From the NCBI RefSeq assembly GCF_963921235.1, contig NC_086126.1, positions 18,104,001 through 18,168,000 on the forward strand: a stretch of 64,000 nucleotides of DNA. The letters run 5' to 3'. The notes beneath the pieces are model-generated. The model worked only from the letters and a program-made list of their open reading frames with translations, had not been told where the DNA came from and did no database searches. This DNA comes from Mobula hypostoma. Its lineage: Eukaryota. Numbering within the stretch: position 1 is the first letter of the stretch; each line of letters starts with the position of its first letter. Both the position numbers and the translations under genes were made by a program. This document shows positions 11,313 through 40,273 of this stretch, one piece after another.

Positions 11313-11314
11313 GA

Positions 11315-12945: not shown

Positions 12946-12949
12946 TCAC

Positions 12950-14400: not shown

Positions 14401-14764
14401 GGGAAACTTGCGAACATTGTAAATAGAATGGGGACAGTGGGAGATTTCCGGGATCGGTGTCCCCACCCCCACGGAAATTGAGTGTGTTATAGACAGTAAT
14501 ATTCATATTTTAATTTGACTCTTCACGGTCTTAGAAATATTTAATGTTTGTATTTTGTATATTTTTATGTGGATAATATTTTGTAATTTTGGGGAAAACA
14601 CGTTTAACTGGATGACTGAACACTCCGTGAAAAAAGAGCGTCACGGGAAAATATGGTCAAAGTCAAAAGTTGAACCCAAGGTAAGTTGTTATTATAGTAT
14701 GTATATGTCACCATATGGTTCAAAGTACGATTTATTCTGACAGTACATACGTGAAACCATATAC

Positions 14765-15035
14765 AACCTACTTGGAAGGAGGTACAGAGGAGACGTCAGG
14801 GGTAAGTCTTTTACGCAGAGACTGGTGAGTGCATGGAACAGGCTGCCGGCGGCCGTGGTGGAGGCGGACACAATAGGGTCTTTTAAGAGACTCGTGGATG
14901 GATACATGGAGCTTAGAAAAATAGAGGGCTATGGATAAGCCAAGGTAGTTCTACGGTAAGGACATGTTCGGCACAACTTTGTTGGCCGAAGGGCCTGTAT
15001 TGTGCTGTAGGTTTTCTATGTTTTGATGTTTCTAC
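14765..15035 (+). mobile_element. Short CR1 3' end
   Basis: Same 3' UTR as 3840-4080, tail TTTTCTATGTTTTGATGTTTCTA; paralog 30610-30880. Confidence 0.8.
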
Positions 15036-17490
15036 AACCCTGAGAGTCTTTTTCTGCGGGCATTCTTAACAAATATATAGAAGAGTAACTGTGAACTGTA
15101 AATATGAGGAACGATAAACTGTAAGCAAACTGCAAATGCAGAAAAATAAATAGCAATAAATAACGAATATGAAAGAACAATATAACAGAGTCCTTACATG
15201 AGTGTAGCTATCCCCTTTTGTTAAAGACACTGATGGTTGAGGGGTAGTAACTGTTCTTGAACCTGGTGGTGCGAGTCCTGAGATACCTGTACCTTCTACC
15301 TGATGGCAGCAGTGAGAAAAGAGCATTGCCTGGGTGGTGAGGATCTTTGATGATGGATTCTGCTTACCTACATCTATGTTTTGTGTAGAGGTGCTCAGTG
15401 GTTATGAATGTTTTACATGTGATGTAGCTGGGCTGAATCCACTAGCTTTAGAAATATAGAAACATAGAAAATAGGTGCAGGAGTAGGCCATTCCGTCCTT
15501 CGAGCCTGCACCGCCATTCAGTATGATCATGGCTGATCATCCAACTCAGAACCCTGTACCAGCCTTCCCTCCATATCCCCTGATCCCTTTAGCCACAAGG
15601 GCCATATCTAACTCCCTCTTAAGTATAGCCAATGAACTGGCCTCAACTGTTTCCTGTGGCAGAGAATTCCACAGATTCACCACTCTCTGTGTGAAGAAGT
15701 TTTTCCTAATCTCGGTCCTAAAAGGCTTCCCCTTTATCCTCAAACTGTGACCCCTCATTCTGGACTTCCCCAACATCAGGAACAATCTTCCTGCATCTAG
15801 CCTGTCCAATCCCTTTAGGATTTTATACGTTTCAATCAGATCCCCCCTGAATCTTCTAAATTCCAACAAGTATAAGCCTAGTTCATCCATTCTTTCATCA
15901 TATGAAAGTCCTGCCATCCCAGGAATCAATCTGGTGAACCTTCTTTGTACTCCCTCTATGGCAAGGATGTTTTTCCACCGATTAGGGGACCAAAACTGCA
16001 CACAATACTCCAGGTGTGGTCTCACCAAGGCCTTGTACAACTGCAGTAGTACCTCCCTGCTCCTGTACTCGAATCCTCTTGCTATAAATGCCAGCATACC
16101 ATTCGCCTTTTTCACTGCCTGCTGTACCTGCATGCCCACTTTCAATGACTGGTGTATAATGACACCCAGGTCTCGTTGCACGTCCCCTTTTCCTAATCGG
16201 CCACCATTCAGATAATAACCTGTTCTCCTGTTTTTGCCACCAAAGTGGATAACTTCACATTTATGCACATTAAGTTGCATCTGCCATGAATTTGCCCACT
16301 CACCTAACCTATCCAAGTCACCCTGCATCCTCTTAGCATCCTCCTCACAGCTAATACTGCCACCCAGCTTCGTGTCATCCGCAGACTTGGAGATGCTGCA
16401 TTTAATTCCCTCATCCAAGTCATTAATATATATTGTAAACAACTGGGGTCCCAGCATTGAGCCTTGCGGTACCCCACTAGTCACTGCCTGCCATTCTGAA
16501 AAGGTCCCATTTATTCCCACTCTTTGCTTCCTGTCTGCCAACCAATTCTCTATCCACATCAATACCTTACCCCCAATACCGTGTGCTTTAAGTTTGCACA
16601 CTAATCTCCTGTGTGGGACCTTGTCAAAAGCCTTTTGAAAATCCAAATATACCACATCCACTGGTTCTCCCCTATCCATTCTACTAGTTACATCCTCAAA
16701 AGATTCTATGAGATTCGTCAGACATGATTTTCCTTTCACAAATCCATGCTGACTTTGTCCGATGATTTCACTGCTTTCCAAATGTGTTGTTATCACATCC
16801 TTGATAACTGACTCCAGCAGTTTCCCCATCACTGATGTTAGGCTAACCGGTCTATAATTCCCTGGTTTCTCTCTCCCTCCTTTTTTAAAAAGTGGGGTTA
16901 CATTAGCCACCCTCCAATCCTCAGGAACTAGTCCAGAATCTAAAGAGTTTTGAAAAATTTGTAGGATTTTTTACTCAAAGGCGTTGATGTTCCTATACCA
17001 CGCCGTAATGCAGCCAGTCAGCACACTTTCCACCACACATTTACAGAAGTTTGACAAAGTTTTCGACGACCGGCTGAATCTCTGAGAGTCCTGAGGAAGT
17101 AGAGGCACAGTCAGGCCTTCTTCACAATAATATTTATATGATGGGTCCAGGACAGGTCCTCAGAGAGTGACACACAGAAATTCAAAGTTACTGACCCTTT
17201 CCACCTCTGATTGTCCTTTGATTACTGGCTCACGGGCCTCTTGTCTTCGCCTCCTAAAGCCACAATCAGTCCGTTGGTCTTATTGACATTGAATAAGAGG
17301 TTGCTGTTGTTATAGCACTCAGCCAAGTTTTCAGTGTCCCTCATGTATGCTGATTAATCACCCCTTTGATACAGCCCACAACAGTGGTGTCATCAACAAA
17401 CTTGTAATTGGTGTTGGAAGTGTACTTGGCCACACAGTCATACTGTAGGTGTAAAGTGAGTCGGGGCTGGGGGGAGCTAAGCACACTTCC
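15036..17490 (-). mobile_element. Rex1/Babar-type LINE fragment split by the CR1 insertion at 15450-16958
   Basis: Minus-strand YDCVAKYTSNTNYKFVDDTTVVG (ORF 17341-17613) and 3' DPHHPGNALFSLLPSGRRY-type sequence near 15250-15350. Confidence 0.8.
15450..16958 (-). mobile_element. Young 5'-truncated CR1 LINE with an uninterrupted 454-aa RT ORF (15546-16910)
   Basis: Open frame with PGNYRPVSLTS, SQHGF, DFQKAFD, GVPQGS, SKSADDTK (FADD changed to SADD); (ATGTTTCT)n-type tail at 15450-15475; empty site CCACTACCCTTTGTAGG in paralog at ~31287-31303. Confidence 0.95.
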
Positions 17491-19983
17491 CATGATGCAC
17501 GAAAGAAAGGGAATTCTGAAGTATGAGTGAGTGCCCTGATTATTTGTCTGAATGGTTATGTGAGAGTCACTGCCCTTGGCATCTAAGAGAACTCCGGTGG
17601 CATGTGTGTTCACACGTTATGGAGCAGAAAGAATGAAGTATGTTGAGAAGTGGGTGGAATGGAAGAAGGGAGTGCTTGCAGAAGTACAGATATAAGGAGA
17701 AAGGTGTGAGGAAACTTTCAGGTGCCCTGTGGTGTTCACCTGGAGTGAAATACAAAAATAATTAGTTGCTTCTCACAGTAAGAGCAGAGAAGATGAAATA
17801 AGGGCAGAGAAAGAGACTCAGAAAGAACAGGAAAATGTAATCACATCTACCTCAGTGTGTAAGAAGACAAAACCTGTACCAATGTCTGAGTAGGAAGTAG
17901 TAGGAACCTGCTATACCCCTGCCTCCCACAGGTACGGTTACAACAAAGCCCACCCCAGTCGTGTCTCCTGAGTACTCGATGAGGTAGGTGTAAACCTCTC
18001 AATAGCACGATGGGAGAATGAGCAATATGGAGACTTTTATGCACTTTGAACTAAAATGGTGTGTTATATTGAAGTGTTTCCTTCACACTCGCAGTGACAT
18101 ACGATACACAGTATTGCAAAAAAAGAAAATGAGCATGTTAATGAATTTGTAAAGTAGACAAACAAGGTCTTTCAGAAGTTTACGGATTTACTCCATCGTA
18201 ATGAATGTTATTGTAAATGATGAGTAAAAGAGCCCAGGTTAAAGAAAATGTAGAGTGTTACTTCCTTGAGATAAAAAGAGGTAAGTAAAATTCTGAGTGG
18301 TTTACAATAATTCCAGATGAAATCAAGTGATTCAAACTGTTAAGGGAATGGATAATATTTGTGTGAGGACTGGAGACTCCCTGGACTGCTCTACCATTAT
18401 CTCATTAATATTGATTGTTGTATAAAAATATTGTGAAAGTTGCCCAATACAATTTGAATGTTATTTTAACTTGTATTCTGTTTTACGTTTAATAAAAATG
18501 ACAGTGACCACATTGTTGTTGTTCATTACTAGATTAACTTCTGTTTACAAATTCACTCTAAATTTACTTTCAACATCACATGCTTTACATGCATTTGACT
18601 TGTCACCCACTTGTGACTGGTATTATTTTTTGTTTTGAAGAGCGTATAGCATTGTTTACAAAAAGCTATTCTAAATGTATGGATTTTGCAGTTCTTTGAT
18701 TCACTTTAGTAAACATGGGGATGTTGGTGGTGGACACGATAGGGGTAAAAGTTGGAGACGGCAGTGAGAGGTGCACTTTGTTTATGGACAGTCTGGTCAC
18801 TGAGCTCAAAAATGCCGACTGTACCAAGGCAGCTTTGATAACAGTCAGTTTCAGCCTCCACCGCCATCACCACCAGAGACTATGAAGTTTACTTTAAATT
18901 ATCATTTCCCAAACTGTACTCTGGAATCTGTACAATTGTAATTCTGCCTGTTGTAAAGTGGCACCTGATGTAAGTCCACATGTCAATTTTTGGAATTGAT
19001 GGCTTCTTCTCCTGATCCGCTACTGGGAGAAGTGTTAGTGGATATGTGGTTTCTGGGCTTCATGTCACAGATGAGGTAGCACAGCTCCTGTTCCACTCAA
19101 TGAACATGACCCTTAGTTATGAATGCATGTTGGTACTAAACGGTCGAGTTGTTGAGTGTGCTGTAAGGAGGCCCATACATTCGGAAAGTGGGTTAACAGT
19201 GCAGCCTCTACCCCTCAATTGTACTGTGTTTGAATCTGTTTACCACTCTGATAAGAAGATTAGAGCTGTGAAGGGAGCACGGGACTGCACTACCCAGAGA
19301 AATCACACTAGCCAATGGAACTGCTTTGAACGATGGCAATAAACTTCTCATCATGGACTGCATGAATCCTCAGCTCTGAAGCTGCTTCATGAGGATGAGG
19401 GTGAAGTCTGTTACTGCAACTACGGGGTGATGGGATCAGATTTAGGTTCCAACACCTGTAATGTCTATGTCACCAGTGATCCTATAACTTCTGTTAATGG
19501 CACTTACAGTATTGGATGGCAGGCTCACTGCTGTTTGCCAAGGGTATCCCCTTTGCCTTTAAGTGGAATCTTTGGCCTGAACCAGAGCTGTCAAGCAGTT
19601 ATTGATACTTGGCGTGTGTAGCAGAAAATACTAACACCTGCCAGCATTGAACGACGAAGGAGACTGATGATTGTTACTGGATTGTCATGTTCCTGTTCTG
19701 GGGACCTACCAGGTGGGCTCCTGAAAACATCAGTATGACCCCAGTGTTGCAGTAATTGGCTAACAACACTTCCAGAGTGCTACATAATACAAGTATAATC
19801 ATCAAAGACATTTCTGACAAAGTGGCAGCAAGCTGCATCATGGCCTTTCAAATCTGAACAGCATTAAACTTTCTGTTAGCCGAGAGGGGAGGAACTTGTG
19901 CAATTATTGGACTGAAATGATGCAAAACATCTTTGATATATCTGAGAACATCGTCGATTTTATCCGTGCGGATCCCGTTAGAA
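17490..19983 (+). mobile_element. Degenerate endogenous retrovirus, copy A (gag-MA-like remnant plus env, no pol), cut by a hAT insertion
   Basis: From 17552 MVM*ESLPLASKRTPVACVFTRYGAERMKYVEKWVEWKKG; env motifs 18679-19983. Confidence 0.75.
18679..19983 (+). pseudogene. env: Gamma-type retroviral env pseudogene, copy A
   Basis: Signal-peptide-like start; WICG (CxxC remnant) ~19039; APVPLN; LGSNTC..VNGTYSIGWQAHCCLP; furin RRRR 19652-19663; hydrophobic YWIVMFLFWG; MAFQI*TALNFLLAERGGTCAIIGLK*C at 19840-19923 (ISD and CX6CC); many stops and frameshifts. Confidence 0.85.
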
Positions 19984-20500
19984 CAGGGTTGTCAAACTAC
20001 CGGCCCGCGAAGGGCCCAGTCCGGCCCGCGGGATGATTTGTGGAATAAAAGTATATTCCCGACCATTTATTATGCATCTGTACGGCAGCCGCTCCTTCTC
20101 CTATCGCTGTCTGTGCCGCCTGCTGCGCCGGCAGCTTGCTGTGCGCACTTAGAAAACAATAGGCGGCAGTTAAACGCCCCCTGTGCATAAGCACTTTCCG
20201 CCCTCTGAAGACCACGAGGGCCCCACTTACGTCGTCAGACATAGTATAAGCACACAGAGTACTCAGGTAAGTAATGTCTGTCTCAAGGCTGAACCTGTTT
20301 GCTACTGTGGTTCAAAATGCTTTCCAAGAAAAGAAAAGTTGACATCGAAGGTCAGAAATTCAACGATAATTGGAAAGATCGTTTTTTCTTCTGTGAGGTC
20401 AACAGCACAGCACGCAACAAGCGGCTGTGGCAAAAGAGTGCAATACCAAATGACACAATGAGACGTAACACGGAGAAAAATATGACATGTACGCATGGTG
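19984..20500 (+). mobile_element. hAT (Charlie/SPIN-like) DNA transposon 5' end with transposase N-terminus
   Basis: TIR CAGGGTTGTCAAAC plus subterminal GGCCCGCG motifs; preceded by 8-bp target CGTTAGAA (central TA); MLSKKRKVDIEGQKFNDNWKDRFFFCEV and a decayed KxHxETxH motif. Confidence 0.85.
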
Positions 20501-20609
20501 GATGTGGTTTTCTGGGAATCAGAGCGACAGGTCACCAGGTAGTGTTGAGCGGAATGTAGAGATGAGGTTGCGGAACGCAGCCACGTTAATGAGCACGGTG
20601 GCACCGAGA

Positions 20610-20825
20610 GGCTGAGGTGTGTTCATTATCAGTGCAGGGTGCAGAACTGTTAAGGCAGACGTACTTAGAGCCTGGATTAGTACATGGCACGGTGATTCGG
20701 TGATTACAGAGATCTGGTTGACAGAAGGACTGGACCAGTCCAGGATTCATATGATTCAGACAGTCCAGAGGAGGCTTAAAGAGATTCCGGAGCAGTTCTG
20801 CTGATGAGGAACAATGTCACAGCGG
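20610..20825 (+). mobile_element. CR1 APE N-terminal fragment
   Basis: ORF 20619-20804 KADVLRAWISTW...ITEIWL. Confidence 0.7.
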
Positions 20826-20859
20826 CGAGGTCATCTCGCTGACACTTGCAGTACGCCAA

Positions 20860-21278
20860 TGTCACAGCCACGGCTTCGGCAACTCAGTAGATAGGGCAAA
20901 TTGCGCTCGTGAATATGCACATGTCAGCTAATTATTATTTCATTGCGATAGTATTTAACTCCATTCATTCCATCGCACAATTTGCCGAGACATGGACACA
21001 GTGCAGCAGCGCTTCACTGCCTGTTTGCATTCTGCCTTTCCTGAGAAATTGGACAGTCGGGTCCAATGTCTCTGAAGACTAGCGGTATTCGTTTTATTCC
21101 TAGTTGTTGTTTTCAGCCGCAGTGTTGGCTTCATTCACCATTTGAGACTTTTAGCTAACGGCCCGAGTGTTTATTACTTCCTTTTCCCTTTCACACTGTT
21201 CACATTAAAGTCTATGAAATATCGACCTGCTTCAGTGTCTCTCACCTCACACTTGGGCCACATCCGAACCCGGTGACA
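20860..21278 (+). mobile_element. LTR of a Gypsy (Sushi-like) retrotransposon, followed by gag start
   Basis: TGTCAC...GTGACA termini, TATTTAA, ATTAAA at 21204-21209; ATG at 21301 gives MDPAEREQL, the typical fish Sushi-like gag start. Confidence 0.75.
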
Positions 21279-22640
21279 GCAAGTCTCAAACCACACAATG
21301 ATGGACCCAGCAGAGAGAGAGCAGCTGACCTTGGCCATGAGATTCATTGGTCAGAGTGATTCGGCGAGGCAACAATGTTCCGTTAGAATTCCTATGCATA
21401 AACCCTTTTTTCTGTCTCCATCGTGACAGAAGGATCTTGCAAAATTTGAACAGTGACGTTTTGATATTGGTGGCTTGAGGAGAGGGTACCTTTATTCTCA
21501 TTGTGTCTCCAGACTCTATATTCTCAGAGTCCCGAGTCTACATATCTAATTCTCCAGTCTACATTGAGTTTCTCCAAAATCCATTCCAAACTTTTAAAGT
21601 CGCAAATACCCAGGTTCCCAGCTTTGTGGTTCCATGACTCAGGTCTGCATAACAAATAAGCGCTTCAAGTAAGCTCTTCAATTGATTCAACAAATCATCA
21701 TTGAAGTCAATAGTGTAAATTCTGGAAGAGCCCTACTCCAAAAGCTGATCCCTGACTGGAGCGTGCAAATAAACAAGTAAAGTAACCTCTTGATGAAAGT
21801 CATCGTATAGTCATGTTACAGACTGGGAAAACTGAATTGTCATGTCGCAAATTAAACAGATCTATAGTGAAATAGATAGCGATGAAATTCATAGCGATGA
21901 GGGAAACCTATCTATACTGTCTTGATCTGGAAATTGAGTGCATATCCTAATTGCCTCTGGAATAAATTGTGAAAGATAAAACACTATAAGATTTGAAAAG
22001 GTTCCTTCTCTTGGTTTCAAGGTTTCCCAAGGACTCTTCTCTATGTTCCGAAGCTTTTTGTTTTTCCGATTGTTTCCAAGGCTTATTCATGTATTCAGGG
22101 TTTCTCAATGTGCTCCCCGTCTCGTGGACTTCCAAGCCTCCCTCTCTGTCCCGCCTACGGGTTCTTGATTTCAGTCTACTGGGGTTCCCAGGTGTCTCAG
22201 TCTCTCGGGATCGCCGAGTCTCCCTGCCTCTCGAGTTCCCCAATGGCTTCCACTAAAGTTCTCTAGGTCTCTCGAGTCATTCCTGGCCCTAGCGTTTTCA
22301 GGTCTTTCTGCGCCATCAGGTACCTGCTATAGGGAGGGGGTGGTCCTGTAGTGACTGCTTCAGGCATGTGCAGGGCATCAGAGAGCATTGGGCTCTGAGG
22401 TTTTTAGACCACCCGAACTGTTTATTGTTGATTAACAACAGTTGTCAATGGTTTAAGAGTTCCTTGTATTTTTCTCGAGCGACTCGCTCTTTCTAATGTG
22501 GTTTCCTGTGCTTTCTGTTTAAGTTTGTTATGTTAATTTTGATAGGCTCCGGGATTCTGTTATTTTATTGTTGAAGCAGATGCCTGATTAGCTCCAACCG
22601 GAGAGTTTTCATTTTGAGAATGATCCCTCTGACGGTGTCA
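21279..22640 (+). mobile_element. Probable non-autonomous LTR-element internal region with PPT
   Basis: Short gag start, low-complexity CCGAGTCT/CTCC-rich interior, PPT-like AGGGAGGGGGG TGGTCC TGT at ~22330-22349. Confidence 0.45.
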
Positions 22641-22715
22641 CTTGGTTCTGTCTCTACATGGAAGTCTTTGCCTCTGATATTGGCAGTGCACATCATGGCA
22701 ATTGTCTACCAGCAT

Positions 22716-25700
22716 CACTGAAGGACATTTTATCTTGAAGAGCTGAGTGACAGAATAAGGACCAAACAACTCAGAGTCATGTGAGAAGTTAAGTTGAGAT
22801 GTTTCCATGAGGTTTGCAGTTTTGAGTAAAATTGAAATGTATACATCTCTTTGGTCAACGCTCTCTAAGCACTGAGAAATCAACTGTATTATCTTGAAGA
22901 GCTGAGTGATGGAATAGGGATCAAACAACTCAGAGTCGTGTGGGAAGTTAAGCTCAGATGTTTCCATAAGGGTTGCAGTCAGTACTTTTGAGTAAAATTG
23001 AAATGTATGCATGTCTTTGGTCAAAGCACTCTATGCACTGAGAAATCATCTTTATTACCTTGAAGAGCTGAGTGACACAATATGGATCAAACAACTCAGA
23101 GTAATGTGGGAAGTGAAGTTGAGATCTTTCCATCAGGTTTACAGTCAGTACTTTTGAGTAAAATTGAAATGTATACATGTCTTTGGTCAAAGCACTCTAT
23201 GCCCTGAGAAATCATCTTTTTTATCTTGAAGAGCTGAGTGACATAATATGGATCAAACAACTCAGAGTCATGTGGGAAGTTAAGATAAGATGTTTCTATT
23301 AGATTTGCAGTCAGTACTTTTGAATAAATTTGAAATGTATACACCTCTTATGTCAAAGCACCCTATTCACAGAGATATATGAATTTTTTTTATCTTGAAG
23401 AGCTGAGTGATAGAATAGGGATCAAACAACTCATAGTCATGTGGGAAGTTAAGTTGAGAAGTTTCCATGAGGTTTGCATCAGTACTTCTGAGTAAAACTG
23501 AAAAGTATACATATCTTCGGTCAAAGCACGCTAAGCACTGAGAAAGCAACTTTTTTCTCTGGAAGAGCTGAGTGACAGAATAGAGATCAAACAACTCAGA
23601 GTCATGTGGGAAGTTCAGTTGAGGTGTTTCCATGAGGTTTGCAGTCAGTACTTCTGAGTAAAATTGAAATGTGTACATGTCTTTGGTCAAAGCACTCTAT
23701 GCACTGAGAAATCATCTTTTTTATCTGGAAGAGCTGAGTGACAGAATAGGGACCAAACAACTCAGAGTCATTTGGGAAGTTAATTTAAGATGTTTCCATG
23801 TGGTTTCCACTCAGTACTTTTAAGCAAACTTGAAATGTATACATCTCTTTGGTGAACGCACTCCAGGCAGTGAGAAATGAATGTTTTTACCTTGCAGAGC
23901 TGAGTGAGAAAATAGCGATCAAACAACTCAGAGTCATGTGGGAAGTTAAGTTGAGATGTTTCCATCAGGTTTGCCGTCAGTACTTTTGAGTAAAATTGAA
24001 ATGTATACATGTCGTTGGTCAAAGCACTCTATGCCCTGAGAAATCATCTTTTTTTATCTTGAAGAGCTGAGTGACATAATATGGATCAAAGAACTCAGAT
24101 TTATGTGGGAAGTTAAGATAAAATGTTTCCATTAGGTTTGCAGTCAGTACTTCTGAATAAATTTGAAATGTATACACCTCTTATGTTAAAGCACCCTATT
24201 CACAGAGAAATCAAATTTTTTATCTTAAAGAGCTGAGTGATAGAATTGAGATCAAACAACTCAGAGACATGTGGGAAATTAAGTTGAGATGTTTCCATGA
24301 GGTTTGCAGTTAGTACTTTTGAAGAAAATCTGAAAAGTGTTCATATATTTGGTCAACGCACTGTAAGCACTGAGAAATCAACTTTTTAATCTTGAAGAGC
24401 TGAGTGACATAATATGGAACAAACAACTCACAGTCATGTGGGAATTTAAGTTAAGCTGTTTCCATCAGGGTTGCAGACAGTACTTCTGAATAAAATTGAA
24501 AATTATACATATCTTTGATAAAAGAAATCTATGCACTGAGAAATGAACTCTTTTGTATTCAAGAGCTGAGTGATAGAACAGTGATCAAACAACTCAGAGT
24601 CATGTGGGAGGTTAAGTTAAGCTCTTTCCATTAGCTTTGCAGTCAGTACTTTTGCGTAAAATTGAAATGTATACTTGTCTTTGGTCAAAGCACTCTATGA
24701 ACTGAGAAGCGAACTCTTTTGTGTTCAAGAGCTGACTGATAGGATAATGATAAAGCAACTCAGATTAATGGGGGAAGTTTTGTTGAGACGTTTCCATGAG
24801 GTTTGCAGTTAGTATTTTTCAGTAAAATTGAAATGTATACATCTCTTTCGTCAAAGCACCCTAATTCACTGAGAAATCAACTTTCTTATCTTGAAGAGCT
24901 GAGTGATAGAATAGGGATCAAACAACTCAGAACAATGTGTGAAACAAGTTGAGATGTTTCCATGAGGTTTGCACTCAGTACTCTTGAGTAAAATTGAAAT
25001 GTATACATCTATTTGGTCAACGCACTCTATGCACTGAGAAATCAACTTTTTTATCTTGAAGAGCTGAGTGACAGAATAGGGATCAAACAACTCAGAGTCA
25101 TGTGGGAAGTTAAGTTGAGATGTTTTCATGAGGTTGGCAGTTTTGACTAAAATTGAAATGTATACATCTCTTTGGTCAACGCACTCTAGGCAGTGAGAAA
25201 TGAACTTTTTTATCTTGTACAGCTCAGTGACAGAATAGGGATCAAACAACTCAAAGTCATGTGGGAAGTTAAGTTGAGATGTTTCCATGAGGTTTGTAGT
25301 CAGCACTATGAATAAAATTGAAATATGCACTTCTCTTAATGTCAAAGCAGTCTATGCACCGAGAAATCAACTTTCTTATCTTGAAGAGCTGAGTGATAGA
25401 ATAGCTCTGAAACAACCCAGAGTCATGTGGGAAGTTAAGTTGAGATGATTCCATGAGGTTTGCAGTCAGTACTTTTGAGTAAATTGGAAATGTATACATG
25501 TCTTTGGTCAAAGCACTCTATGGCCCTGACAGATCATCTTTTTTATCTTGAAGAGCTGAGTGACATTACATGGATCAAACAACTCAGGACCATGTGGGAA
25601 GTTAAGATAAGATGTTCCATCAGGCTTGCAGTCATTATTTTTGATTAAAATTGAAATATACACTTCTCTGAATGTCAAAGCACACTAGTCACCGAGAAAC

Positions 25701-26641
25701 CAACTTTTTTTCTTGAGGAGCTGAGTGATAGAATAGCTTGGAAACAACTCAGAGTCATGTGACAAGTTAAGTTGACTTGATTCCATGAGGTTTGCAGTCA
25801 CTACTTTTGAGTAAAGTTGAAATGTATACATCTCTTTGGTCAACGCACCCTATGCCCTGAGAAATCATCTTTTTTGTCTTGAAGAGCTGAGTGATAGAAT
25901 ATGGATCAAACAACTCAGAGTCATGTGGGAAGTTAAGCTGAGTTGTTACCATGAGGTTTGCAGTCAGTAGTGTTGAGTACAATTGAAATATACACTTCTC
26001 TGAATGTGAAAGCACACTATGCACTGAGAAAGCAACTTCTTTTTCTTGAGGAGCTGAGTGATAGAATAGCTCTGAAACAACACAGAGTCATGTGGCAAGT
26101 TAAATTGAGTTGATTCCATGAGGTTTGCAGTCAGTACTTTTGAGTAAAGTTCAAATGTATACATGTCTTTGCTCAAAGCACTCTATGCCCTGAGAAATCA
26201 TCTTTTTTATCTTGAAGAGCTGAGTGACATAATATGGATCAAACAACTCAGTGTCATGTGGGAAGTTAAGATAAGATGTTTCCATTAGATTTGCAGTCAG
26301 TACTTTTGAATAAGTTTGAAATGTATACACCTCTTATGTCAAAGCACCCTATTCACAGAGATATCATTTTTTTTATCTTGAAGAGCTGAGTGATAGAATA
26401 GGGATCAAACAACTCATAGTCATCTGGGAAGTTAAGTTGAGAAGTTTCCATGAGGTTTGCGTCAGTACTTCTGAGTATAATTCAAATGTATACATCTCCT
26501 TCGTCAAAGCACCCTATTCACAGTGAAAGCAACTTTTTTTATCTTAAAGAGCTGAGTGATAGAATTGAGATCAAACAACTCAGAGACATGTGGGAAGTTA
26601 AGTTAAGATGTTTCCATGAGGTTTGCACTCAGTACTTTTTT
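22716..26641. repeat. Satellite DNA array, ~166-bp monomer, ~23.5 copies
   Basis: GAGCTGAGTGA anchor (occasionally variant) recurs 24 times from 22740 to 26549 at 159-169 bp spacing, mostly 166. Confidence 0.98.
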
Positions 26642-29600
26642 GGGCTCCTCATCTAGGAAAAGATGTGGTGGCATTGGAGAGGGTTCAGAGGAGGTTCATA
26701 AGGATGATTCCAGGATTGAGAGTGTTATCCTATGAGGAATGTTTGATAGCTCTGGGACCATACTCGCTGGAATTTGGAAGGATGAGGCAAGATCTCATTG
26801 AAACCTTTCAAATGTTGAATGGACTAGACAGAGTAGATGTGGAAAAGATGTTTCCCATTTCCCATGGTGAGGGAGTCTAAGACAAGTGGGCACAGCCTCA
26901 GGGTAGAGGGGCAGAGATGCAGAGAAATTTCTTTAGCCAGAGTGTGGTGAATTTGTGGAATTTATGACCAGAGGTAGCTGTGGGGGCCAGGTCGTTGGGT
27001 GTATTTAAGGCAGAGCTTGATAGTTTCTTGATTGGATGGGGCATCAAAGGCTTCGGGGAAAAGGCTGAGGAGTGAGGCTGAGGAGGAGAAAGAAGGGTCA
27101 GCCATGATTGAATGGTGGGGCAGACTCGATGGGCCAAATGGCCTAATTCTGCTGCTATGTCTTATGGTCTTACTCAGTTAATCCAACAACCACAACATAA
27201 TCAATGAAACACCGCACCCAACACAGTAACCAAATAACCAATGTGTAAACGACAATAGCGTGTGCAAATACAAGAGAGAAAATAATAATAATCATAAAGA
27301 AATAAGAAATAAATAGAGAACATAAGATGCAGAAGTCGTGAAAATGAGGCGATAGATTGTGGGAAACAGTTTAGTGATGACTTCAGTGAAGTTAAATGGA
27401 GTTATCTCCACTGGTTCTGGTTTAAGGTGACACTGGTGAATCTCTATTTCTCGTGAATGAATAGCCTGTAACTTCCCTTTGGACTTGGAGGCAATTTGAT
27501 GTGGCAGAACAGAGGTGAGGCAGCGGACCCGTCACTGAGAGTGAGGAAGACACGAAGTTCAGTTGATTTAAACGCCGGGACCAAATGGAAAAGTCAGGTA
27601 CAGGCCAAATGGAGGCAGCGGGGACCAGGCCCCAGATCGTATCGAAGCAACTGAACCCAGTGTTTGGATGATGATTTAGGTGCCAGGCCAGATTGAAATG
27701 GTCAGTGTGTTGGGCTCGAGGCCAGGGACCAGCCGGTTCAGCTCGCTGCTCCATTCTGTGCTGAACTAAGCATCTGTGGACGGACTCTCTGAGGATTTCA
27801 GTTCAAAATGATACAGTATTTGCTTGTGTTTATTGTTTGCATGATTTATTTTCCTTTCTGCACATTGGGTGTTTGACAGACTTCTTGCTTTATTAGTGGG
27901 TTCTTTTGGCTTTCTTTGTTTTATGGCAGCTTGTTTGGAACGAACCTCAAGTTTGTAGAATATAAACTTATTTTGATAATAAATGTACTTTGAACTTTGG
28001 TTGAAAAACCTGATGGTTGAGGGATTAAAAAAAAGTCAAGAATTCAACAAAACTCAAAACTAATGCTCTTTTAATTACCGGCCAGGATGGAGAAGAAAAA
28101 TATTCTTCCCCTTTTTAAGAACTGCAATAGGGAGAAGACAGGAAACTATACCCTGGTGACTCTTACATTAGTGGATATTTTTGGAAATGATTTTTAACGA
28201 TAGGATCAACTTGCATCTGAGAAAGCATAAACACATATATATCAGTTTCTGTACTATTTTTACTATTTAATAAATGTATAAATTATTTACTGTGATTTAT
28301 TCATTCATAGAAAACAGAGAAATCTACAGCACATTTCAGGCCTTTCAGTCCACAATGTTGTGCCGATCATGTTACCTACTCCAGAAACTGCCTGGAAATT
28401 GCCTCGTGCATAACCCTCTATTTTTCTAAGCTCCATGTACCAACCTAAGAGTCTCTTAAAATACACTATTTTATCCGCTTTCACCACCATCGCCAGCAGT
28501 GCATTCCACGCACCCACCACTCTGTGTGAAAAACTTCCCACTAACAACCGCTCAGTACCTATTTCCAGGCACCTTAAAACTATGCCCCCTCATGTTAGCC
28601 ATTTTAGCCCAGGGAAAGGACCTCTGACTATCCACAGGATCAAAGACCCTCATCATCTTGTACACCTCTATCAGGCCACTTCTCATCCTCCATCGCTCCA
28701 AGGAGAAAAAGCCAAGTTCACTCAACCTATTCTCATAAGGCAACATCCTTGTAAATCTCCTCTGCACTCCTCTTCACATCCTTCCTGTAGTGAGGTGACC
28801 AGAACTGAACACAGAACTCCAAGTGGGGTCTGACCAAGGGCTTTACCCCACAGCTCTTGAACACAATCCCACAATCTCCTGTCACACTCACCTCAATAAT
28901 CAGTAAATGCTTTGAGAGGTTGCTCAAGAACTACATCTGCAGTGTGCTGACACCCACATGGGTCCCCCAATTTGCCTACTGACACAACCAATCAACAGCT
29001 GATGTAATAGTCACAGCTCTGCACATCGTCCTTGGAGAAGAGGGATGCTCATGTCAGAATGCTGTTCTTGGGCTAGGGTTGAGCATTCAACACCATAATT
29101 CCCTGCAGCCTCCACAAGAAGCGTAGAGACCTCAGCCTTCATCCTGCCTTCTGTAGCTGGATCCTGGACTTCCTGTCAGATTGCTGGCAGGTAGTAAGGG
29201 TGGGCTCCCTCACCGCTGTCCCTCTGACCCACAACACAGGTGCCCCTCAGGGCTGTGTACTGAGCTCCCTTCTTTACTCTCTATATTCCCATGACTGTGT
29301 CGCCACCCACAGCTCCAATCTGTTAATTACATTTGCTGACAACACTGCACTGATTGGCCTAATTTCAAATAATTATGAGGCAACCTACAGAGAAGAAGTT
29401 ATCACCCTGACACAGCGGTGTCAAGAAAACAACCTCTCCGACAATATTGCAAAAACAAAGCAGCTGGTTGTGAACTACAGGATGCATGGAGACAGGCTAA
29501 CCCCAATTGACATCAATGGATCAGGGGTTGAGAGGGTGAACAGCTTTAAGTTCCTCAGCATAAACATCACCGAGGACCTCACGTAGTCTGTGCATACCGG

Positions 29601-30074
29601 CTGTGTGGTGGAAAAGGCACAATCTTTCACCTCAGACAGTTGAAGAAATTTGGTGTAGACGCCAAATCGTAAGAACTTTCTACAGGGAGACTATTGAGAA
29701 CATCCTGACTGGCTTTTAAAAACTAAAGGGAATAGTTTTAAGATAACAGTGAGAAGGGGATCTGAAGTGTAAATATTTCACACAGAGAATAACTGGTATC
29801 CCAAATGAGCTGCCAGAGGTGTGGGGGGCAGAAACCCATAAAGTCTCCGTTCGTGAAAACTTCCCCGGAAACTCTCGTTCACTGTGTACATCCTGCCCTG
29901 GTTTAACCTCCCAAGATAGAGTCACTGGTTTATACAGAAATGAAACAGTCCCTTCGGTACAACTCATCCACGCCGACCAAGTTGTCGACCTGAACTCGGC
30001 CCATCTGCCTGCATTAGGCCCGTATCCCTTTCAACCTTTCCTATCTATGTGACTGTGCAAATATGTTTTAAATA

Positions 30075-30330
30075 TTGTACAAAAGGCAGAGAGCCGGTGC
30101 AGTGAGGCGCTGACAGACACTCACTGTTCCGCGGGCAGGAAGAGGAGAGGTGGATCCCATAGTGGAGCCAAAACCCCAACAAGTAGAGACCGACTCCCCT
30201 TCTCTGCAGAGCCGTGCCGTCCATCTCGGATTTACCGCCCCGCCCCGGACCGGGCCGTTTCCCAGGAAACGATGTCGGCGAAGGAGGGCCCTCTGTGACG
30301 TCAGCGCGCCAACCGCGACCCCACCCCCAC
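30075..30330 (-). promoter_or_regulatory. Duplicated, damaged copy of the 14115-14400 CpG promoter/exon
   Basis: CRE 30296-30303 and TTCCCAGGAA kept; splice-donor exon side altered; ~125 bp including the E-box deleted. Confidence 0.4.
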
Positions 30331-31569
30331 GGAAATTGAGTGTGTTATAGACAGTAATATTCATATTTTAATTTGACTCTTGTATTGTATTTTGTATATT
30401 TTTGTATGGATAATCTTTTGTAATTTTGTGGAAAACACGTTGTAACTGGATCACTGAACACTCCGTGAAAAAAGAGCGTCATGGAAAAATACTGTCAAAG
30501 TCAAAAGTTAAACCCAAGGCAAGTTGTTATTATAGTACTTATATGTCATCATATAGTTCAAAGTACAATTTATTCTGACAGTACATACGTGAAACCATAT
30601 ACTGTACAACCTACCTGGAAGGAGGTACAGAGGAGATGTCAGGGGTAAGTTTTTTACGCAGAGAGTGGTGAGTGCATGGAATGGGCCGCCGGCGGCCGTG
30701 GTGGAGGCGGAAACGACAGGGTCTTTTAAGAGACTCCTGGATATAAACATGGAGCTTAGAAAAATAGAGGACTATCGGTAAACCAAGGTAATTCTAAGGT
30801 AAGGACATGTTCGGCACAACTTTGTGGGCCGAAGGGCCGGCATTGTGCTGTAGGTTTTCTATGTTTCTGTTATGTTTCTGCAACCCTGAGAGTCTTTTTC
30901 TGTGGGCATTCTTAACAAAATCTACAGAACAGTACCTGCGAATTGTAAATATGAGGAAAGATAAACTGTAAGCAAACTGTGTAAATGAAGAAAGATAAAT
31001 TGCAATAAATAACGAGTATGAAATAACAATATAACAGAGCTCTTAAATAAGTGTTGCTATCCCCTTTTGTTCAAGACACTGATGGCTGAGGGGTAGTAAC
31101 TGTTCTTGAACCAGGTGGTGCGAGTCCGGAGGTACCTGTACCTTCTACCTGATGGCAGCAGTGAGAAAAGAGCATTGCCTGGGTGGTGAGGATCTTTGAC
31201 GACGGACACTGCTTTCCTACGGCAATGATTCATGTAGATGTGCTCAGTGGTTGTGAGTGTTTTACCTGTGATATACCGAGCTGAATCCACTACCCTTTGT
31301 AGGTTTTGCCACCTCCGGGATGGAATCCCATTGGTCATGATGCATATGCCTTGGGGTGGATTTGATCCCATGATGCAGGAAATAAAGGGAATTCTGAAGT
31401 ATGAGTGAGTGCCCTGATTATGTGTCTGAATGGTCACGTGAGAGTCACTGTCCTGGACATCTAAGAGAACTCCGGTGGCGTGTGTGTTCACACATTATGG
31501 AGCAGAAAGAATGAAGTGTGTTGAGAAGTGGGTGGAGTGGAAGAAGGGAATGCTTGCAGAAGTACAGAT

Positions 31570-31885
31570 GTTGTTCGTTCATCATTGACGTCGATGAGGA
31601 CCTCAACACCATTATGATGGTGTCGAGACTAGCGTGTGATTTGGATTTGTGAGGCAGAGCTGCGCAGCATCAGCCTCTCTCTCTTCCCAATTCCCATCTG
31701 GATCCAGTGGCAGAGTCTAGACAGCTGGAGATGGGACTAGGCGCAGTGGATGACCAGGACGTCTTCTGTGTCTTGTCCTGCTCTACACGTTCCACGACGC
31801 TTGCAGAGACCACCTTCTTGACCGTTGGACCTTCCATTGGTCTCGTCCGCTCAATCCGCCGGAGTCTGTCTTCACATGCTGGGAT
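31570..31885 (-). mobile_element. SINE-like (probably RTE-related) insertion with 8-bp TSD
   Basis: Absent from paralog at ~17683-17690; flanked by GTACAGAT (31562-31569) and GTATAGAT (31886-31893); minus-strand end ...GAACGAACAAC. Confidence 0.7.
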
Positions 31886-32545
31886 GTATAGATATAAGGA
31901 GAAAAATGTGAGGAAACTTTCAGCTGCCCTGTGGTGTTCACCTGGAGTGCAATGCAAAAATAATTGGTTGCTTCTCACAGTAAGAGCAGAGAAGATGAAA
32001 TAAAGTTAGAGAAAAAAGACTTAGAAAGAACAGGAAAATGTAATCGACTCTACCTCAGTGTGTAACAAGACACAACTGGTACCAATGTCTGAGTAGGAAG
32101 TAGTAGGAACCTGCTGTACCCCTGCCTCCCACAGGTACGGTTACAACAAAGCCCACCCCAGTCGTGTCTCCTGAGTACTCAACGAGGCAGGTGTAAACCT
32201 CTCACTAGCACGATGGGAGAATGAGCAATATGGAGACTTTTATGCACTTTGAACTAAAATGGTGTGTTATATTGAAGTGTTTCCTTCACACTCCATAGTG
32301 ACATATGATACACAGTATTGCACAAATAGCAGATGAGCACGTTAATGAATTTATAAAGTAGACAAGCAAGATATTTCAGAAGTTCACGGATTTACTCGAT
32401 CGTAATGAATGTTATTGTAAATGATGAGTAAATTAGCCCAGGTTAAATAAAATGCAGACTGTTACTTGTTTCAGATGGAAAGAGGTAAGTAAAATTCTGA
32501 GTGGATTACAATAAATCCAGATGAAATCAAGTGATTCAAACTGTT

Positions 32546-33176
32546 TCTTTCTTTCTTTTTAAATTTTTTTTATTGAATTAGTACACAAATTAGGTAAAAC
32601 ATATATAAACTAATACCCTGTTGCGATATAAATTTACAAGAGATATTAATACATAAAAAACAATACAAACAGTGCAGTTTAGTTATAAAATAATGAGGTA
32701 ATATAGTAGTATACTAATTTTCCATATATATCAATAAGGAGAAGAAAAAACCCAAAAAAAAGACCCCCTTCCCCAAAAAAATTACCGTGCAACTAACCTA
32801 AAAAGCAAAGCAAAGCAATGGGCTAACTAGATATCAAGTAGACTTAAACAAACTTAAACAATCACGTCCTCAAACCCGACCTCCATTAATAACCGTTAAA
32901 AACCAAGAAGGGAATGTAAATATGATCAAAGAGAAAAAAAAAGTTACATTAAATGAAAATGTTGAATAAAAGATCACCAGGTCTGTTCAAATTCAACTGA
33001 AGTATCATAAAGATTACTTCTGACTTTTTCCCAATTTAAACATAGTATCGTTTGAGAAAACAAAAAAAAACGTAGTTGGGACATTAATCTCCTTCCAATG
33101 TTGTAAAATACATCTTTTCGCCATTAAAGTAAGAAATACATTCATTCTACGGGCTGAAGGGGAAAGATTACTGGAA
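32546..33176 (-). mobile_element. 5'-truncated L1-clade LINE with perfect 13-bp TSD
   Basis: TSD GATTCAAACTGTT at 32533-32545 and 33177-33189; A-rich/(GAAA)n tail; minus-strand FLTLMAKRCILQHWKEINVPT...FEQTW*SFIQHF (L1 ORF2 C-terminus); empty sites in copies A and C. Confidence 0.9.
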
Positions 33177-35330
33177 GATTCAAACTGTTAAGGGAATGGA
33201 TAATATTTGTGTGAGGACTGGAGACTCCCTGGACTGTTCTACCACTGTCTCATTAATATTGACCATTGTATAAAAATATTGTGACAGTTGCCAGTTATTT
33301 TATTAATTAATTTGATTAATTATTTATTAATTTAAACGTTATTTTAACTTGTATTCTGTTTTATATTTAATAAAGTGACAGTAACCACATTGTTTTTGAT
33401 CATTGCGAGATTAACTTCTGTTTACAATTTCACTCTAACTTTCAATATTACCTGCTTTACATGCTTTTGACTTGTCACCCACTTGTGACTGTTATTATTT
33501 TTGTTTTGAAAAGCGTATAGCATTGTTTAGAAAAAGCTATTCTAACTGTATGGGTTTTGCTTTTCTTTGATTCACTTTAACAAACATGGGGATGTTGGCG
33601 GTGGACACAGTAGGGGTAAAAGATGGAGACAGCCTGGCCACCGAACTCAAAGATACCCTCAGTGCTAAGGCAACTTTGATAACAGTCAGTTTCAGCCTCT
33701 ATTGCCATCACCACCACAGACTATGAAGCTTACTTTAAATTATCCTTTCCCAAACTGTACTGTAGAATCTGTACAATTGTAATTCTGCCCATTGTAAAAT
33801 AGCACCTGATGTAAGCCCGCATGTCAGGGTTTGGCATTGACAGCTTCTTCTCCTGATCCGATACTGGGAGAAATGTTAGTGGGTATGTGCTTTGTGCGCT
33901 TCATGTCACAGATGAGGTAGCACAGCTCCTGTTCCATTCAAACAACATGACCCTTAGTTATGAATGCGTGTTGGGACTAAACGGTTGAGTTGTTGAGTGT
34001 GCTGTAAGGGGGCCCGGACATTCGGAAAGTGGGTTAACAGTGCAATCTCTACCCCTCAATTGTACTGAGTTTGAATCTGTTTACCACTTTGATAAGAAGA
34101 TTAGAGCTGTGAAGGGAGCACTGGACCGCACTGCCCAGTGAAATCACACTTGCCAATGGAACTGCTTTGAACAATGGCAATAAACTTCTCATCATGGACT
34201 GCATGAATCCTCAGCTCTGAAGCTGCTTCATGAGGATAAGGGTGAAGTCTGTTACTGCAACTACAGGGTGATGGGATCAGATTTAGGTAACACTATGTGC
34301 AATGTCCATGTCACCAGTGATGCTATAATTTATGTTAATGGCACTTACAGTATTGGATGGCAGGCCTACTGCTGTTTGCCAGGAGTATCCTCTTTGCCTT
34401 TAAATTGAGCCTTTGGCCTGAAGAAAAGCTGTCAAATATTTATTGATATTTGGAGTCTGTAGCAGAAAATCTAACACCTGCCAGCATTGAAGCACGAAGG
34501 AGACTGATGAGTGTAACTGGATTGTAGTGTTCCTGTTCTGGGGACCTACCAGATGGGATCGTGAAAACATCAGTATGACCCCAGTGTTGCAGTGATTGGC
34601 TAACAACACTGCTATAGTGCTACATGATACAAGTCTGGTCATCAAAGACATTTCTAACAAAGTGGCAGCAAGCTGTATCATGGACTTTCAAAACTGAACA
34701 ACATTAAGCTTTCTGTTGGCCGAGAAAGGAGTCACTTGTGTCATTATTGAACTGAAATAATTGAAAACATCGTCGATTTTACCCGTACAGATCCCGTTAG
34801 AAGCTGTTAAAGTGAAGAATTTTAGGCAGGAGTTACATACGACTCTATCGTCACCTTTGGAACCCTTCTGATTAGCCTCATTCTCTGCCAGGAAGTTTGT
34901 GTAACTCCAGTGTATAGTGGGCAAGGGGGTTTATATTCTTGCAGGTGTTGAAACTTGTTTAGATATCTTACTGAGAGCACTCTGTGGAGAGAGGACCCGA
35001 AGGACAGCTGCCTCCTATCGTTCAGAAATCCTACTGTGCAGACAGACGATGACAGGATCACTGGGGAGACTCGAATTTTCTGTGCAATTCAGCTGCATCA
35101 ACAATTCATGTGGTCCTTTACAGGACGCAAAGGGAAGTGGGGAGTGTGGATGTTACAGCAAGTCAAGTTAATGCAGCGTCTCGGCAAGGATAGTGTGTAG
35201 TCAACCCAGGGAAGAAAGGTCTTTGAAGAGCAGAGTTTCCCTTTGCACAGCAGGGGACTGGAGCCATTTTGCACACCGAAACAAGATGAGGATGCAAACG
35301 AAATGTTCCAGGGTGACACTTAATATTGGT

Positions 35331-35466
35331 CACACACAAGAGAAATCTGCAGATGCTGAAATCCAAGCAACGCACACAAAATGCTGAAGGAACTCAGCAG
35401 ACCAAGCAAATCGATGGAAAAGAGTAAACAGTCGACGTTTCCGACCGGCACCCTTCGTCTGGACTG
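35331..35466 (-). mobile_element. Penelope-derived terminal fragment with degenerate hammerhead motif
   Basis: AAAATGCTGAAGGAACTCAGCAG...AGTCGACGTTTCCGACCGGCACCCTTCGTCTGGACT; paralog 39843-39978. Confidence 0.75.
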
Positions 35467-35796
35467 ATGTTGGTTAGTTACCTTACTACTGTGGTGGGAA
35501 CATGCGGGAATTCATAGTTGACAACAAAAACCCCGGATTAATATGCTCGGAATGATGGACTGTGTAACAACGAACAAGTAACAAAGAACGGTGCTGAGAT
35601 ATAGATTCTCAGGGGATACTTGAGGAAAGAGGCTGACAGTAACACCACTTTCTTCTCGGAAGGATCACAGCAGCCCGAGCAATTCCATCCTTCCCAATGC
35701 CCAATGAACTGATTAGCGAAAACACAAATTCTTCGTCCGCTCTTATTTGTCTTTTGAATTTAATATTCCCGTTGAATAATGTAGTAAAATTCTTAC

Positions 35797-35868
35797 CTCC
35801 CTGTCGGGGAACTGAACCCCCGTCTCCCGCGTGGCAGGCCGGGATACTAACTACTATACTAACGAGGA
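35797..35868 (-). pseudogene. tRNA-Asp-derived pseudogene with GCC anticodon
   Basis: Reverse complement TCCTCGTTAGTATAGTAGTTAGTATCCCGGCCTGCCACGCGGGAGACGGGGGTTCAGTTCCCCGACAGGGAG; Asp body with D-loop, anticodon-stem and T-arm lesions. Confidence 0.85.
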
Positions 35869-38060
35869 ATGGCTATTGGTAGCCCATGTCATGCACATTT
35901 AAGAGGACAAGAGGGTGAACAGAATTATCTTGATGTTTCTCAGCTGTAATACTGGAGCCTTTCACTCGTGTCCATCCCACCACAGTGTCTCAGTTCGCTC
36001 CAGCGATTCAGTCACCTGTTGTGTTCAAGGATTAGCGAAAGGAAGTGCTCTCATTCGAGCCCAAATCCGTGTTGTTGGAATGAACATTTTTAATCACAGT
36101 TATATATTTATATTTCTGTTTTGGCAACGATATGTAGCTAATCGAATTCTGAAGCGTTCACTCCCACTTCATTGAAACACTGGGTGTTGTGTATCTCCGG
36201 TCTGTCGGAGGATGGCGACCTCAACCGGACATAACAGGAACTGCACCAGAGTGAGGAATCACAGTGACCACATTCAGAAAACAGCTTGAACCACAGTCAT
36301 ACACTTCCAGCGTCCGAGTGGTCCAACCCTGACAACTCGCGTACGAATTCCCGAAGTTATTTAAATCGACTAGTGAATGTAAAATTATTATTCACCCTGG
36401 GCTGGCCAATGGATCAAGGATTGAAGTGCTTTCCCTCGCATTTTCCCCGGTGAACCGATCAGTGCATCTTCCTGCTCTCACTCTCACCCAGATTCCCACA
36501 GCCAATTTACTGGGACACATCAAAACATGTAGATGATGTGTTCACACTGAGTGCCGTCAGTCTACTCACCATCCACTCTATTTATACACAGTGGGATCTC
36601 TCTCAGCCCCTTCCCCCATTACTAGAGTAAATAAAAGCCTTTATTGTGATTCAAAATGTAATATAGATTCACAGAATCATGCGGCCCTAAAACAGGCCTT
36701 TCGGCTCACAATGTCACGCTGACAATCAACTACCGATCGCACCAGAAAAGGGCTCGTTTACTAGCTGTTGCCTTCAGTGTCTTGATGATTCAGGTGGTCG
36801 CCCAGACAATTCTCTAATGTTGTGAGTATACCTGCCTCGCCAGTCAACTCAGGCATGGGTTCCAGTTTCCAAAAACATCCGCATGAAGTTCTCCATGTGA
36901 TGCTCTCTAAGTTTACACACGTCAGAACAGTTTCCTACTATGCTGATAAACCCGGGTTAATTTGATATGACCTCCGACACCTCCAGAGTTCTCCATGGAA
37001 ACAATCGTCAATCCATCGGCCGAATGGACGCCCATGGGCCCAGCACGCTGCCGCTGCGCCTCTCTGCTGTTGTCTGTACGTGGTGACGCGCTGCTCCGAT
37101 GTGGACGTTGCTCATTCTTCTCTTCATTTTCATTTGTCGATTCTTTGCTGACGTCACATCGTGTCATAGAAACACAGAAAACCTACAGCACAGTACAGGC
37201 CCTTCGGCCCACAACGCTGTGCTGAACATGTCCTTGCCTTAGAAATTACCTGGGGTTACCCATTGCCCTCTAGTTTTCTAAGCTCCAATGGAGGGCTTCC
37301 TTTATAAATGTTTCCTTTATTAACCGTTCTTTGTTGATTTATTTCGCACCTTTCTCTCTGCTTTTCTTCTCGTATTTGCTATCTCCTGCCCCATCCTGAT
37401 ATTATCTCTGTGCTGTCTGTGCTCCGACACATTCGGAGACCTCGTTCCCGACATGTCAGCAATGAATGTGTTGCACATTATTTTCTGAACCCATTTTTAG
37501 TGGCCCTGCTGTCACACATTCTGTTCATCTTCCACCGTATCTCTTCCGCGTTCTCTTTCTTTGTCTCCGGGCTGTCCTTCGGCATAAATTAGCCCAGGTT
37601 AAATAAAATGCAGACTGTTACTTGTTTGAGATGAAAAGACGTAAGTAAAATTCTGAGTGGTTTACAATAATTCCAGATGGAATCAAGTGATTCAAACTGT
37701 TAACGGAATGGATAATATTTGTGTGAGGACTGGAGACTCGCTGGAATGCTCTACCACTGTCTCATTAATATTCACCGTTGTATAAAAATATTGTGACAGT
37801 TGCCTGTTATTTTATTAATTTGATTAATTATTTATTAATTTGAACGTTATTTTAACTTGTATTCTGTTTTATATTTAATAAAAATGACAGTAACCCCATT
37901 GTTTTTGATCATTGCGAGATTAACTTCTGTTTACAGTTTCATTCTTACTTTCAACATTACCTGCTTTACATGCTTTTGACTTGTCACCCACTTGTGACTG
38001 TTATTATTTTTTTGTTTTGAAAAGCGTATAGCATTGTTTAGAAAAAGCTATTCTAAATGT

Positions 38061-39420: not shown

Positions 39421-40273
39421 GGCAAGGGGGATTATATTCTTGCTGGTGTTGAAACTTGTTTAGATATCTTACTGAGAGCACTCTGTGGAGAGAGGACGCA
39501 AAGAGCAGTTGTCTCCTATCGTTCAGCAATCCTACTCTTCAGACAGACGATGACTGGATCACTGGGGAGACTCGACTTTTCTGTGAAATTCAGCTGCATC
39601 CACAATTCATGTGGTCCTTTACAGGACACAAAGGGAAGTGGGGAGTGTGGATGTTACAGCAAGTCAAGTTAATGTAGCGCCTCGGCAAGGATAGTTCACA
39701 GATAGTGTGCAGTCAACCCAGGGAAGAAAGGTCTTTGAAGAGCAGAGTTTCCCTTTGCACAGCAGGGGACTGGAGCCATTTTGCACACCAAAACAAGATG
39801 AGGATGCAAACGAAGTGTTCCAGGGTGACACTTAATATTGGTCACACACAAGAGAAATCTGCAGATGCTGAAATCCAAGTAGCACACACAAAATGCTGAA
39901 GGAATTTAGCAAACCAAGCAAATCGATGGAAAAGAGTAAACAGTCGACATTTCCGTCCGCTAACCTTCGTCTGGACTGATACCAGTTAGTTACCTTACTA
40001 CTGTGGTGGGAACATGCGGGAATTCATAGTTGACAGCAAAAGCCCCGGATTAATATGCTCAGAATTATGGACTCTGTGTAACAACGAACAAGTAACAAAG
40101 AACGGTGCTGAGATATAGATTCTCAGGGGATACTTGAGGAAAGAGGTTGACAATAACACCACTTTCTTCTCGGAAGGTTCACAGCAGCCCGAGCAAATCC
40201 ATCCTTTCTTTGTCCGCTTTTATTTGTCTTTTGAATTCAGTATTCCCGTTGAATAATGAAGTAAAATTACAAT

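Follow-up and report, generated by a model that had tools for sequence, protein, structure and literature searches.

The window analysed here, a 64,000-nucleotide stretch of the 3.48-Gb Mobula hypostoma genome (C82:18104001-18168000, where C82 is our label for its contig and L-numbers denote fetched loci), carries decayed gamma-type retroviral envelope (env) remnants at three sites: copy A at 19111-19983, copy B at ~33950-35000 and copy C at ~38460-39500. We consider it very probable that these are three dead local duplicates of one insertion, that the insertion came from a dispersed class I endogenous retrovirus (ERV) family without protease (PR) and reverse transcriptase (RT), with RNase H, integrase (IN) and a gamma-type env, and that this family likely spread in trans by means of a helper. 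The features of the window that bear on this account are the following.

17488..18815, plus strand: copy A gag remnant with many stops; zinc-knuckle remnant at 18774-18815; 65-70% alike in nucleotides to the family's stretch from primer-binding site (PBS) to knuckle
18950..19097, plus strand: copy A N-terminal stub of RNase H, with FxDG at 18998; collinear with the start of RNase H in relatives
19087..19111, plus strand: copy A deletion joint; the rest of RNase H, integrase and the env 5' end gone, ~1.5 kb; blastn jump against L081, L119, L121, L123 and L128
19111..19650, plus strand: copy A env surface subunit (SU) remnant; CxxC homologue broken at ~19150
19651..19983, plus strand: copy A env transmembrane subunit (TM) remnant; 3 stops; ends at an unrelated insertion at ~19984
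31366..33700, plus strand: copy B gag remnant, interrupted at 31570-31882 and at 32546-33176 by insertions, the latter with a 13-bp target-site duplication
33820..33940, plus strand: copy B RNase H stub, placed by alignment with relatives
33952..35000, plus strand: copy B env remnant; long tail, likely a frameshifted anchor remnant
35129..35526, plus strand: copy B polypurine tract (PPT) and 3' long terminal repeat (LTR) remnant; LTR from 35145; repeat resembling a short interspersed element (SINE) inside; end approximate
37585..38451, plus strand: copy C gag, 3' half only, and RNase H stub; begins at the tandem-duplication breakpoint
38463..39500, plus strand: copy C env remnant; putative anchor-like hydrophobic stretch at ~39419-39460, in another frame
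39630..40038, plus strand: copy C PPT and 3' LTR remnant; LTR from 39646, with a SINE-like repeat at 39843-39977; end approximate
33177..42051, no strand: tandem duplication; units 33177-37589 and 37689-42051, 92% alike; carries B and C, one tRNA gene each
8181..15444, no strand: copy A upstream flank; recurs upstream of copy B (26638-31292) as three blocks, 88-92% alike

Anatomy of the window copies

All three env remnants retain a WxVxFxFW fusion segment, a heptad and an immunosuppressive domain (ISD; 19846-19896 in copy A), as a prior reading made from the letters alone (the sequence-only reading) had described. The CX6CC that it also named survives as a remnant broken by a stop, CX6C-(stop)-C (present in A and C; unbroken CX6CC occurs in family members L071 and L073). 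Each window TM holds three stops, and frameshifts are also present. The SU CxxC motif, CWVC in relatives, reads C-(stop)-VC at ~19150, and SU starts abruptly at ~19111 in copy A; no signal peptide is present in the window copies, the env 5' end being deleted, and the membrane anchor is absent from copy A and in B and C may survive as a hydrophobic, frameshifted stretch. The PPT followed by TG that had been noted stands at 35129-35146 in copy B and at 39630-39647 in copy C. Nothing in the window is predicted to yield a working protein today.

Compared with Pfam, none of 12 window frames gave a relevant match at E<=1, and seven pieces searched at E<=10 gave two matches, both irrelevant; the sole match in PDB was a weak one to the ISD of syncytin-1 (E 0.078). 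With tblastn, the window TM finds open env frames at other places in the genome (E down to 1e-17, 35-42% identity), which themselves match TLV_coat at E 1e-7 to 3e-16, and the TM of family member L073 reaches E 3.8e-4 against TLV_coat (below the curated cut-off). The TM identity of the remnants therefore comes from matches of their relatives and not from profile matches of their own. Because the TM matches TLV_coat-positive frames, and because an ISD followed by CX6CC is a gamma-type signature, the env in the window is real; fusion peptide, heptad, ISD and CX6CC is the order described for gamma-type TM (PMC3758190; this and the other papers cited are represented here by excerpts). Judged by its sequence, it is the gamma-type env of a class I ERV, as had been proposed, now reduced to broken remnants.

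The region upstream reads differently from what had been claimed. The signal-like env start at 18679 aligns with the gag end of relatives (18730-18815 in the window), including the CCHC knuckle at 18774-18815; the copy A knuckle (GGHGRG...CGQPGHW..RC) aligns with theirs, and zf-CCHC is matched at E 0.025 in relative L073. The WIC/WVC at 19039, taken for the CxxC, is an other-frame reading of the RNase H stub (FxDG at 18998), the true homologue lying at ~19150, and APVPLN at 19084 is another such reading at the joint between RNase H stub and deletion. The letters of the proposed furin site RRRR are there at 19652-19663, out of frame with TM, while the cleavage-site homologue in the TM frame, the frame in which relatives have this site, is broken by a stop. 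A gag start ~1.1 kb upstream had been thought to leave no room for pol, but that 1.1 kb is gag itself (copy C is without the 5' half of gag). Since gag templates from other families gave no match to the window gag, its matrix and capsid identity is assigned by position only. Relatives match RNase_H templates, and the copy A stub alone gave no match in Pfam.

A dispersed family without protease and reverse transcriptase

Dispersed relatives were fetched through env, gag, junction and IN queries and 69 unique loci were tallied, leaving out L080 and L088 (partial gag matches), L034/L035 (duplicates), L040 (another family) and L074 (the 3' half of L075); some 'gag?' and 'pro?' templates, being debris of long interspersed elements (LINEs) or SINEs, were ignored. 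The family is dispersed genome-wide, with copies ~70% alike, and has the order LTR (~570 bp), PBS, gag (~1.3 kb), RNase H, IN, env, PPT and LTR; of the family ends, the window retains only the 3' LTR and PPT, in B and C. The 5' LTRs are followed by PBS-like remnants similar to the 3' end of genomic tRNA-Gln. The MLV-type integrase C-terminal domain (MLVIN_C) is matched in all three dispersed members scanned (E 6e-10 to 1e-12) and is absent from the window copies. Against proteins outside the genome, family IN is at best 42-43% identical, the top named ones being from sawshark, coelacanth and turtles, and the family TM stretch, compared with longer proteins, gave 184 candidates of which none reached E<=1e-5, which is weak evidence.

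A complete Pol protein (P0006) compared with the 69 loci matched IN at 55, RNase H at 10, RT at two and PR at none, and the two RT matches read as Gypsy-type neighbours. The family is therefore RT-less rather than pol-less, as the sequence-only reading had it, because IN and RNase H are kept while PR and RT are absent; its claim of a non-autonomous lineage without RT is borne out, with no retroviral PR or RT at any examined family locus. Other RT-like matches beside family copies (L068, L116, L087, L155) were set aside as Gypsy-type from their sequence and 21-29% identity, a label that is our own reading and not a library match.

The extent of the loss can be followed between two anchors, the gag knuckle and RNase H, which are both present in 34 of the 69 loci, with one present in 16 and none in 19. 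The spacing between them is <=400 bp, and mostly 240-280 bp, in 30 of the 34 scorable loci, so that many independent, dispersed insertions share one internal deletion. Of the four wider spacers three match LINE-like repeats of the window and the fourth (L084) is unassigned; no RT match in them fell below E 0.01. In a junction search, in which 40 of 306 candidates were scored, 17 of the 39 non-self loci (counted by hand) run from knuckle to RNase H within a single alignment and six more do so in two pieces. As a control, the RT templates find RT or connection in all four older RT-bearing ERV loci tried, at E 1e-18 to 1e-50. Pol deletions that keep IN and env are also found in other families of the genome (L102, where PR adjoins RNase H, L145 and L146), so the form seen in this family looks like a recurring deletion product.

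The family also varies at its 3' end. The distance from ISD to PPT is 126-192 bp in 21 of the 26 scorable dispersed loci and 386-575 bp in the other five, and since the tail is too short in the 21, most copies are likely to be without a membrane anchor.

One insertion duplicated with its neighbourhood

Close copies of the window elements, 78-100% alike, lie on C82 at 17.8-18.8 Mb and on contigs C83, C148 and C162, and beyond the window comprise nine fetched stretches (L051-L058, L076) and the near-identical duplicates L059 and L060. Their ISD-to-PPT distance is ~440-460 bp, and they share a downstream flank toward a tRNA gene. In an env tree of 39 rows the 13 cluster rows form one clade (support 100/100, stem 0.21); env identity is 87% for A/B and for A/C, and 95% for B/C. 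Four cluster copies outside the window carry 5' LTR pieces with 79-85% identity to copy C's 3' LTR, and L052, L053, L058 and L076 have the same RNase H-to-SU joint, which is absent from the dispersed copies aligned. Because their flanks are shared, the window copies are duplicates and not three insertions: A, B and C are segmental and tandem duplicates of one old insertion in a tRNA-gene region, and the founder of the cluster had also lost integrase and the env start. The element had been reported as present three times, which holds for the env copies and not for separate insertions, and the gag-env-only form that had been taken for a lineage is a secondary deletion observed in this one duplicated cluster alone.

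Within the cluster, L060 (C82:18033-18043 kb) is an inverted near-identical copy of A, 99% over 3.2 kb, and L059 (C82:18285-18295 kb) a near-identical duplicate of copy B; both could be very recent duplications or assembly artefacts. In L052 and L053 the gag end carries a 3-base repeat that has grown to ~600 bp. The duplicated tRNA genes at 35796-35869 and 40273-40346 (minus strand) are called by ARAGORN as Gly(GCC) and Asp(GTC), respectively, the anticodon differing.

Intact relatives, age and decay

Intact env relatives would, according to the sequence-only reading, be of real interest; none was seen among the family members examined. No open frame exceeds 186 amino acids (aa) among the 69 closest IN matches (self excluded), or 376 aa among 150 TM matches. 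A TLV_coat search of the genome gave 78 matches, 21 of them in frames that run for >=448 aa without a stop, and of 16 TLV_coat loci mapped (15 among the 21), 12 have RT and six have LTR pairs 92-99% alike. These long open env frames are a separate, unrelated young family: as helper or relative the young env-open proviruses were rejected, with no nucleotide match at any of the 16, another PBS, and a TM 27-33% identical to that of copy C. Loci L135-L150, on other contigs, represent this young class I family, several of them with pol deletions that keep IN and env. The RT-bearing ERVs found belong to other families.

LTR pairs are 69-82% alike in 10 of the 11 loci with both remnants, and the 11th gave no alignment. 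The corrected divergence of ~0.29 (calculated by hand) would correspond to ~65 My (million years) at 2.2e-9 substitutions per site each year and to an implausible 650 My at 2.2e-10, both rates being quoted in PMC4422223; as the two differ so widely, the family is old, its age uncalibrated. Differences are spread evenly over codon positions 1, 2 and 3 in each of the TM, SU, RNase H and IN regions (unfiltered test on 27-39 copies per region, all confidence intervals (CIs) spanning zero), and decay is equal across positions in the cluster copies as well. Of the marks of a co-opted (syncytin-like) env, neither an open full-length frame nor purifying selection is found, and the retention of env shows no sign of function.

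Proposed origin and rival explanations

We propose the following course of events. A progenitor would have lost PR, RT and connection, so that the gag knuckle came to lie ~250 bp away from RNase H. The RNA of this progenitor carried LTRs, a Gln-type PBS and a PPT; an autonomous helper likely packaged and reverse-transcribed it, and the resulting burst would have left star-like copies. Complementation in trans is among the known ways in which defective ERVs spread (PMC3769647). Most copies may go back to a sub-form from which the env anchor region was lost as well. Finally, a long-tailed insertion on C82 would have been stripped of integrase and the env start, have decayed, and have been copied together with the surrounding tRNA-gene region through segmental and tandem duplication. 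The loci themselves record the anatomy, the shared absence of PR and RT, the duplication history and the neutral decay.

Several points weigh against this account. No autonomous helper occurs among the loci examined, so that complementation in trans is an inference. The RT control loci are less decayed than the family; 35 of the 69 loci, having one or no anchor, are uninformative on the joint; and rare RT-bearing members could exist, since 40 of 306 junction candidates and 150 of 953 IN candidates were scored. The short-tail clade is weakly supported (92/91), with one long-tail copy inside. A filtered codon test gave a small third-position excess, with the CI above zero for TM and IN; it was set aside because a filter on protein identity to the template brings ascertainment bias and the unfiltered repeat showed no excess. 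As the tree is star-like, the codon tests speak for neutral decay after insertion and say little on function during spread.

Three other explanations compete with helper-driven spread followed by local duplication. That the window's gag-env-only form was a mobile pol-less lineage in its own right, with three or more insertions, would fit the nine further such stretches and the joint common to four of them, but all lie on C82 at 17.8-18.8 Mb or on three small contigs, have flanks in common and form a monophyletic group on a long decay stem, and their joint is missing from the dispersed copies aligned; this is largely refuted, and we hold it to be very improbable. Somewhat less remote, though still unlikely, is that the RT-less element was an active partner, which made Gag, IN and Env while spreading and received RT in exchange from a virus that was env-less or defective in some other way. 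A widely spread family that retained all three genes, a long env tail in five of 26 scorable dispersed copies and in the C82 founder, and the weak excess in the filtered codon test would agree with such an exchange; yet the unfiltered test shows no codon bias, the 21 of 26 copies without the anchor region are the most widely spread, and no partner virus was found. In gammaretroviruses the env splice acceptor lies within IN, so that IN may be a mere passenger here. Equally doubtful is the wider claim of an undescribed ancient mass expansion, in a cartilaginous fish, of a two-component kind, with a PR/RT-less retrovirus supplying Gag, integrase and Env to its partner; if true, it would be invisible to RT-based surveys, and the copies would log the stepwise loss of PR-RT, env anchor and integrase. 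The many repeats in one region might also suggest that the host keeps the duplicated env remnant in the tRNA cluster for some function, but three stops per TM, frameshifts, the missing signal peptide and equal codon-position decay in the cluster copies refute this at the protein level, and we give it next to no credence.

Relation to known elements

Pol-deleted, env-keeping ERVs are already known. Among the nearest known elements is EAV-HP of chicken, a replication-defective LTR-gag-env element with pol missing for which a helper in trans has been proposed (PMC3747184). The two are alike in the pol defect, the retained env and the proposed helper, whereas EAV-HP is alpharetrovirus-related and recent, with pol-bearing relatives known, and our family is class I, old and dead, keeps RNase H and IN, and its helper was not found. 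The LTR-gag-env-LTR ERVs of Lagopus and Tympanuchus (PMC10820513) likewise have pol deleted and env kept, at 3-5 kb, but are alpharetroviral with 1-3 copies listed, whereas our family has at least 69 dispersed loci and retains IN. HERV-14q32.12 (PMC8672886) resembles the family in being class I with gag, an integrase core and a TLV_coat env and no RT domain; it is, however, a single human locus for which the excerpt reports no family-wide shared deletion, such as the family has. Env-bearing ERVs of cartilaginous fish are also represented by the epsilon-like CmiERVs of elephant shark (PMC4422223), which are set apart by description, being defined by Pol with downstream Env and having an LTR divergence of 2-3%. 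Gamma-type TM is found in fish among five vertebrate classes (Henzy and Coffin, PMC3758190), while the window copies of the family are broken remnants only. The excerpt of PMC4607243 holds nothing on pol deletion. No published description of the family was found, in a search that did not cover Dfam or Repbase; the supplementary sequence sets of PMC4422223 and PMC6001957 could bear on it.

The family is of modest weight: a clean case of ERVs that would escape surveys based on RT trees (PMC6001957), and evidence that a defective element with env aboard can become widespread. No intact or co-opted env is found in it, and the window copies chiefly record the duplication of a tRNA-gene region.

Other features of the window

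The stretch at 19984-20030, where copy A ends, resembles what we take to be a hAT/Charlie terminal repeat. In the flank of copy A, a 474-aa open LINE-type RT frame (15546-16970, minus strand) is missing from the duplicated flank of copy B. A tandem array at 22728-26639 consists of ~23.6 copies of a 166-bp unit with 81% matches, and an imperfect palindrome of ~200 bp (78%) lies at 62085-62286. At approximately 59326-59637 (plus strand), a histone-like reading frame, presumably histone H4, has one early in-frame stop and several substitutions and is likely a pseudogene.

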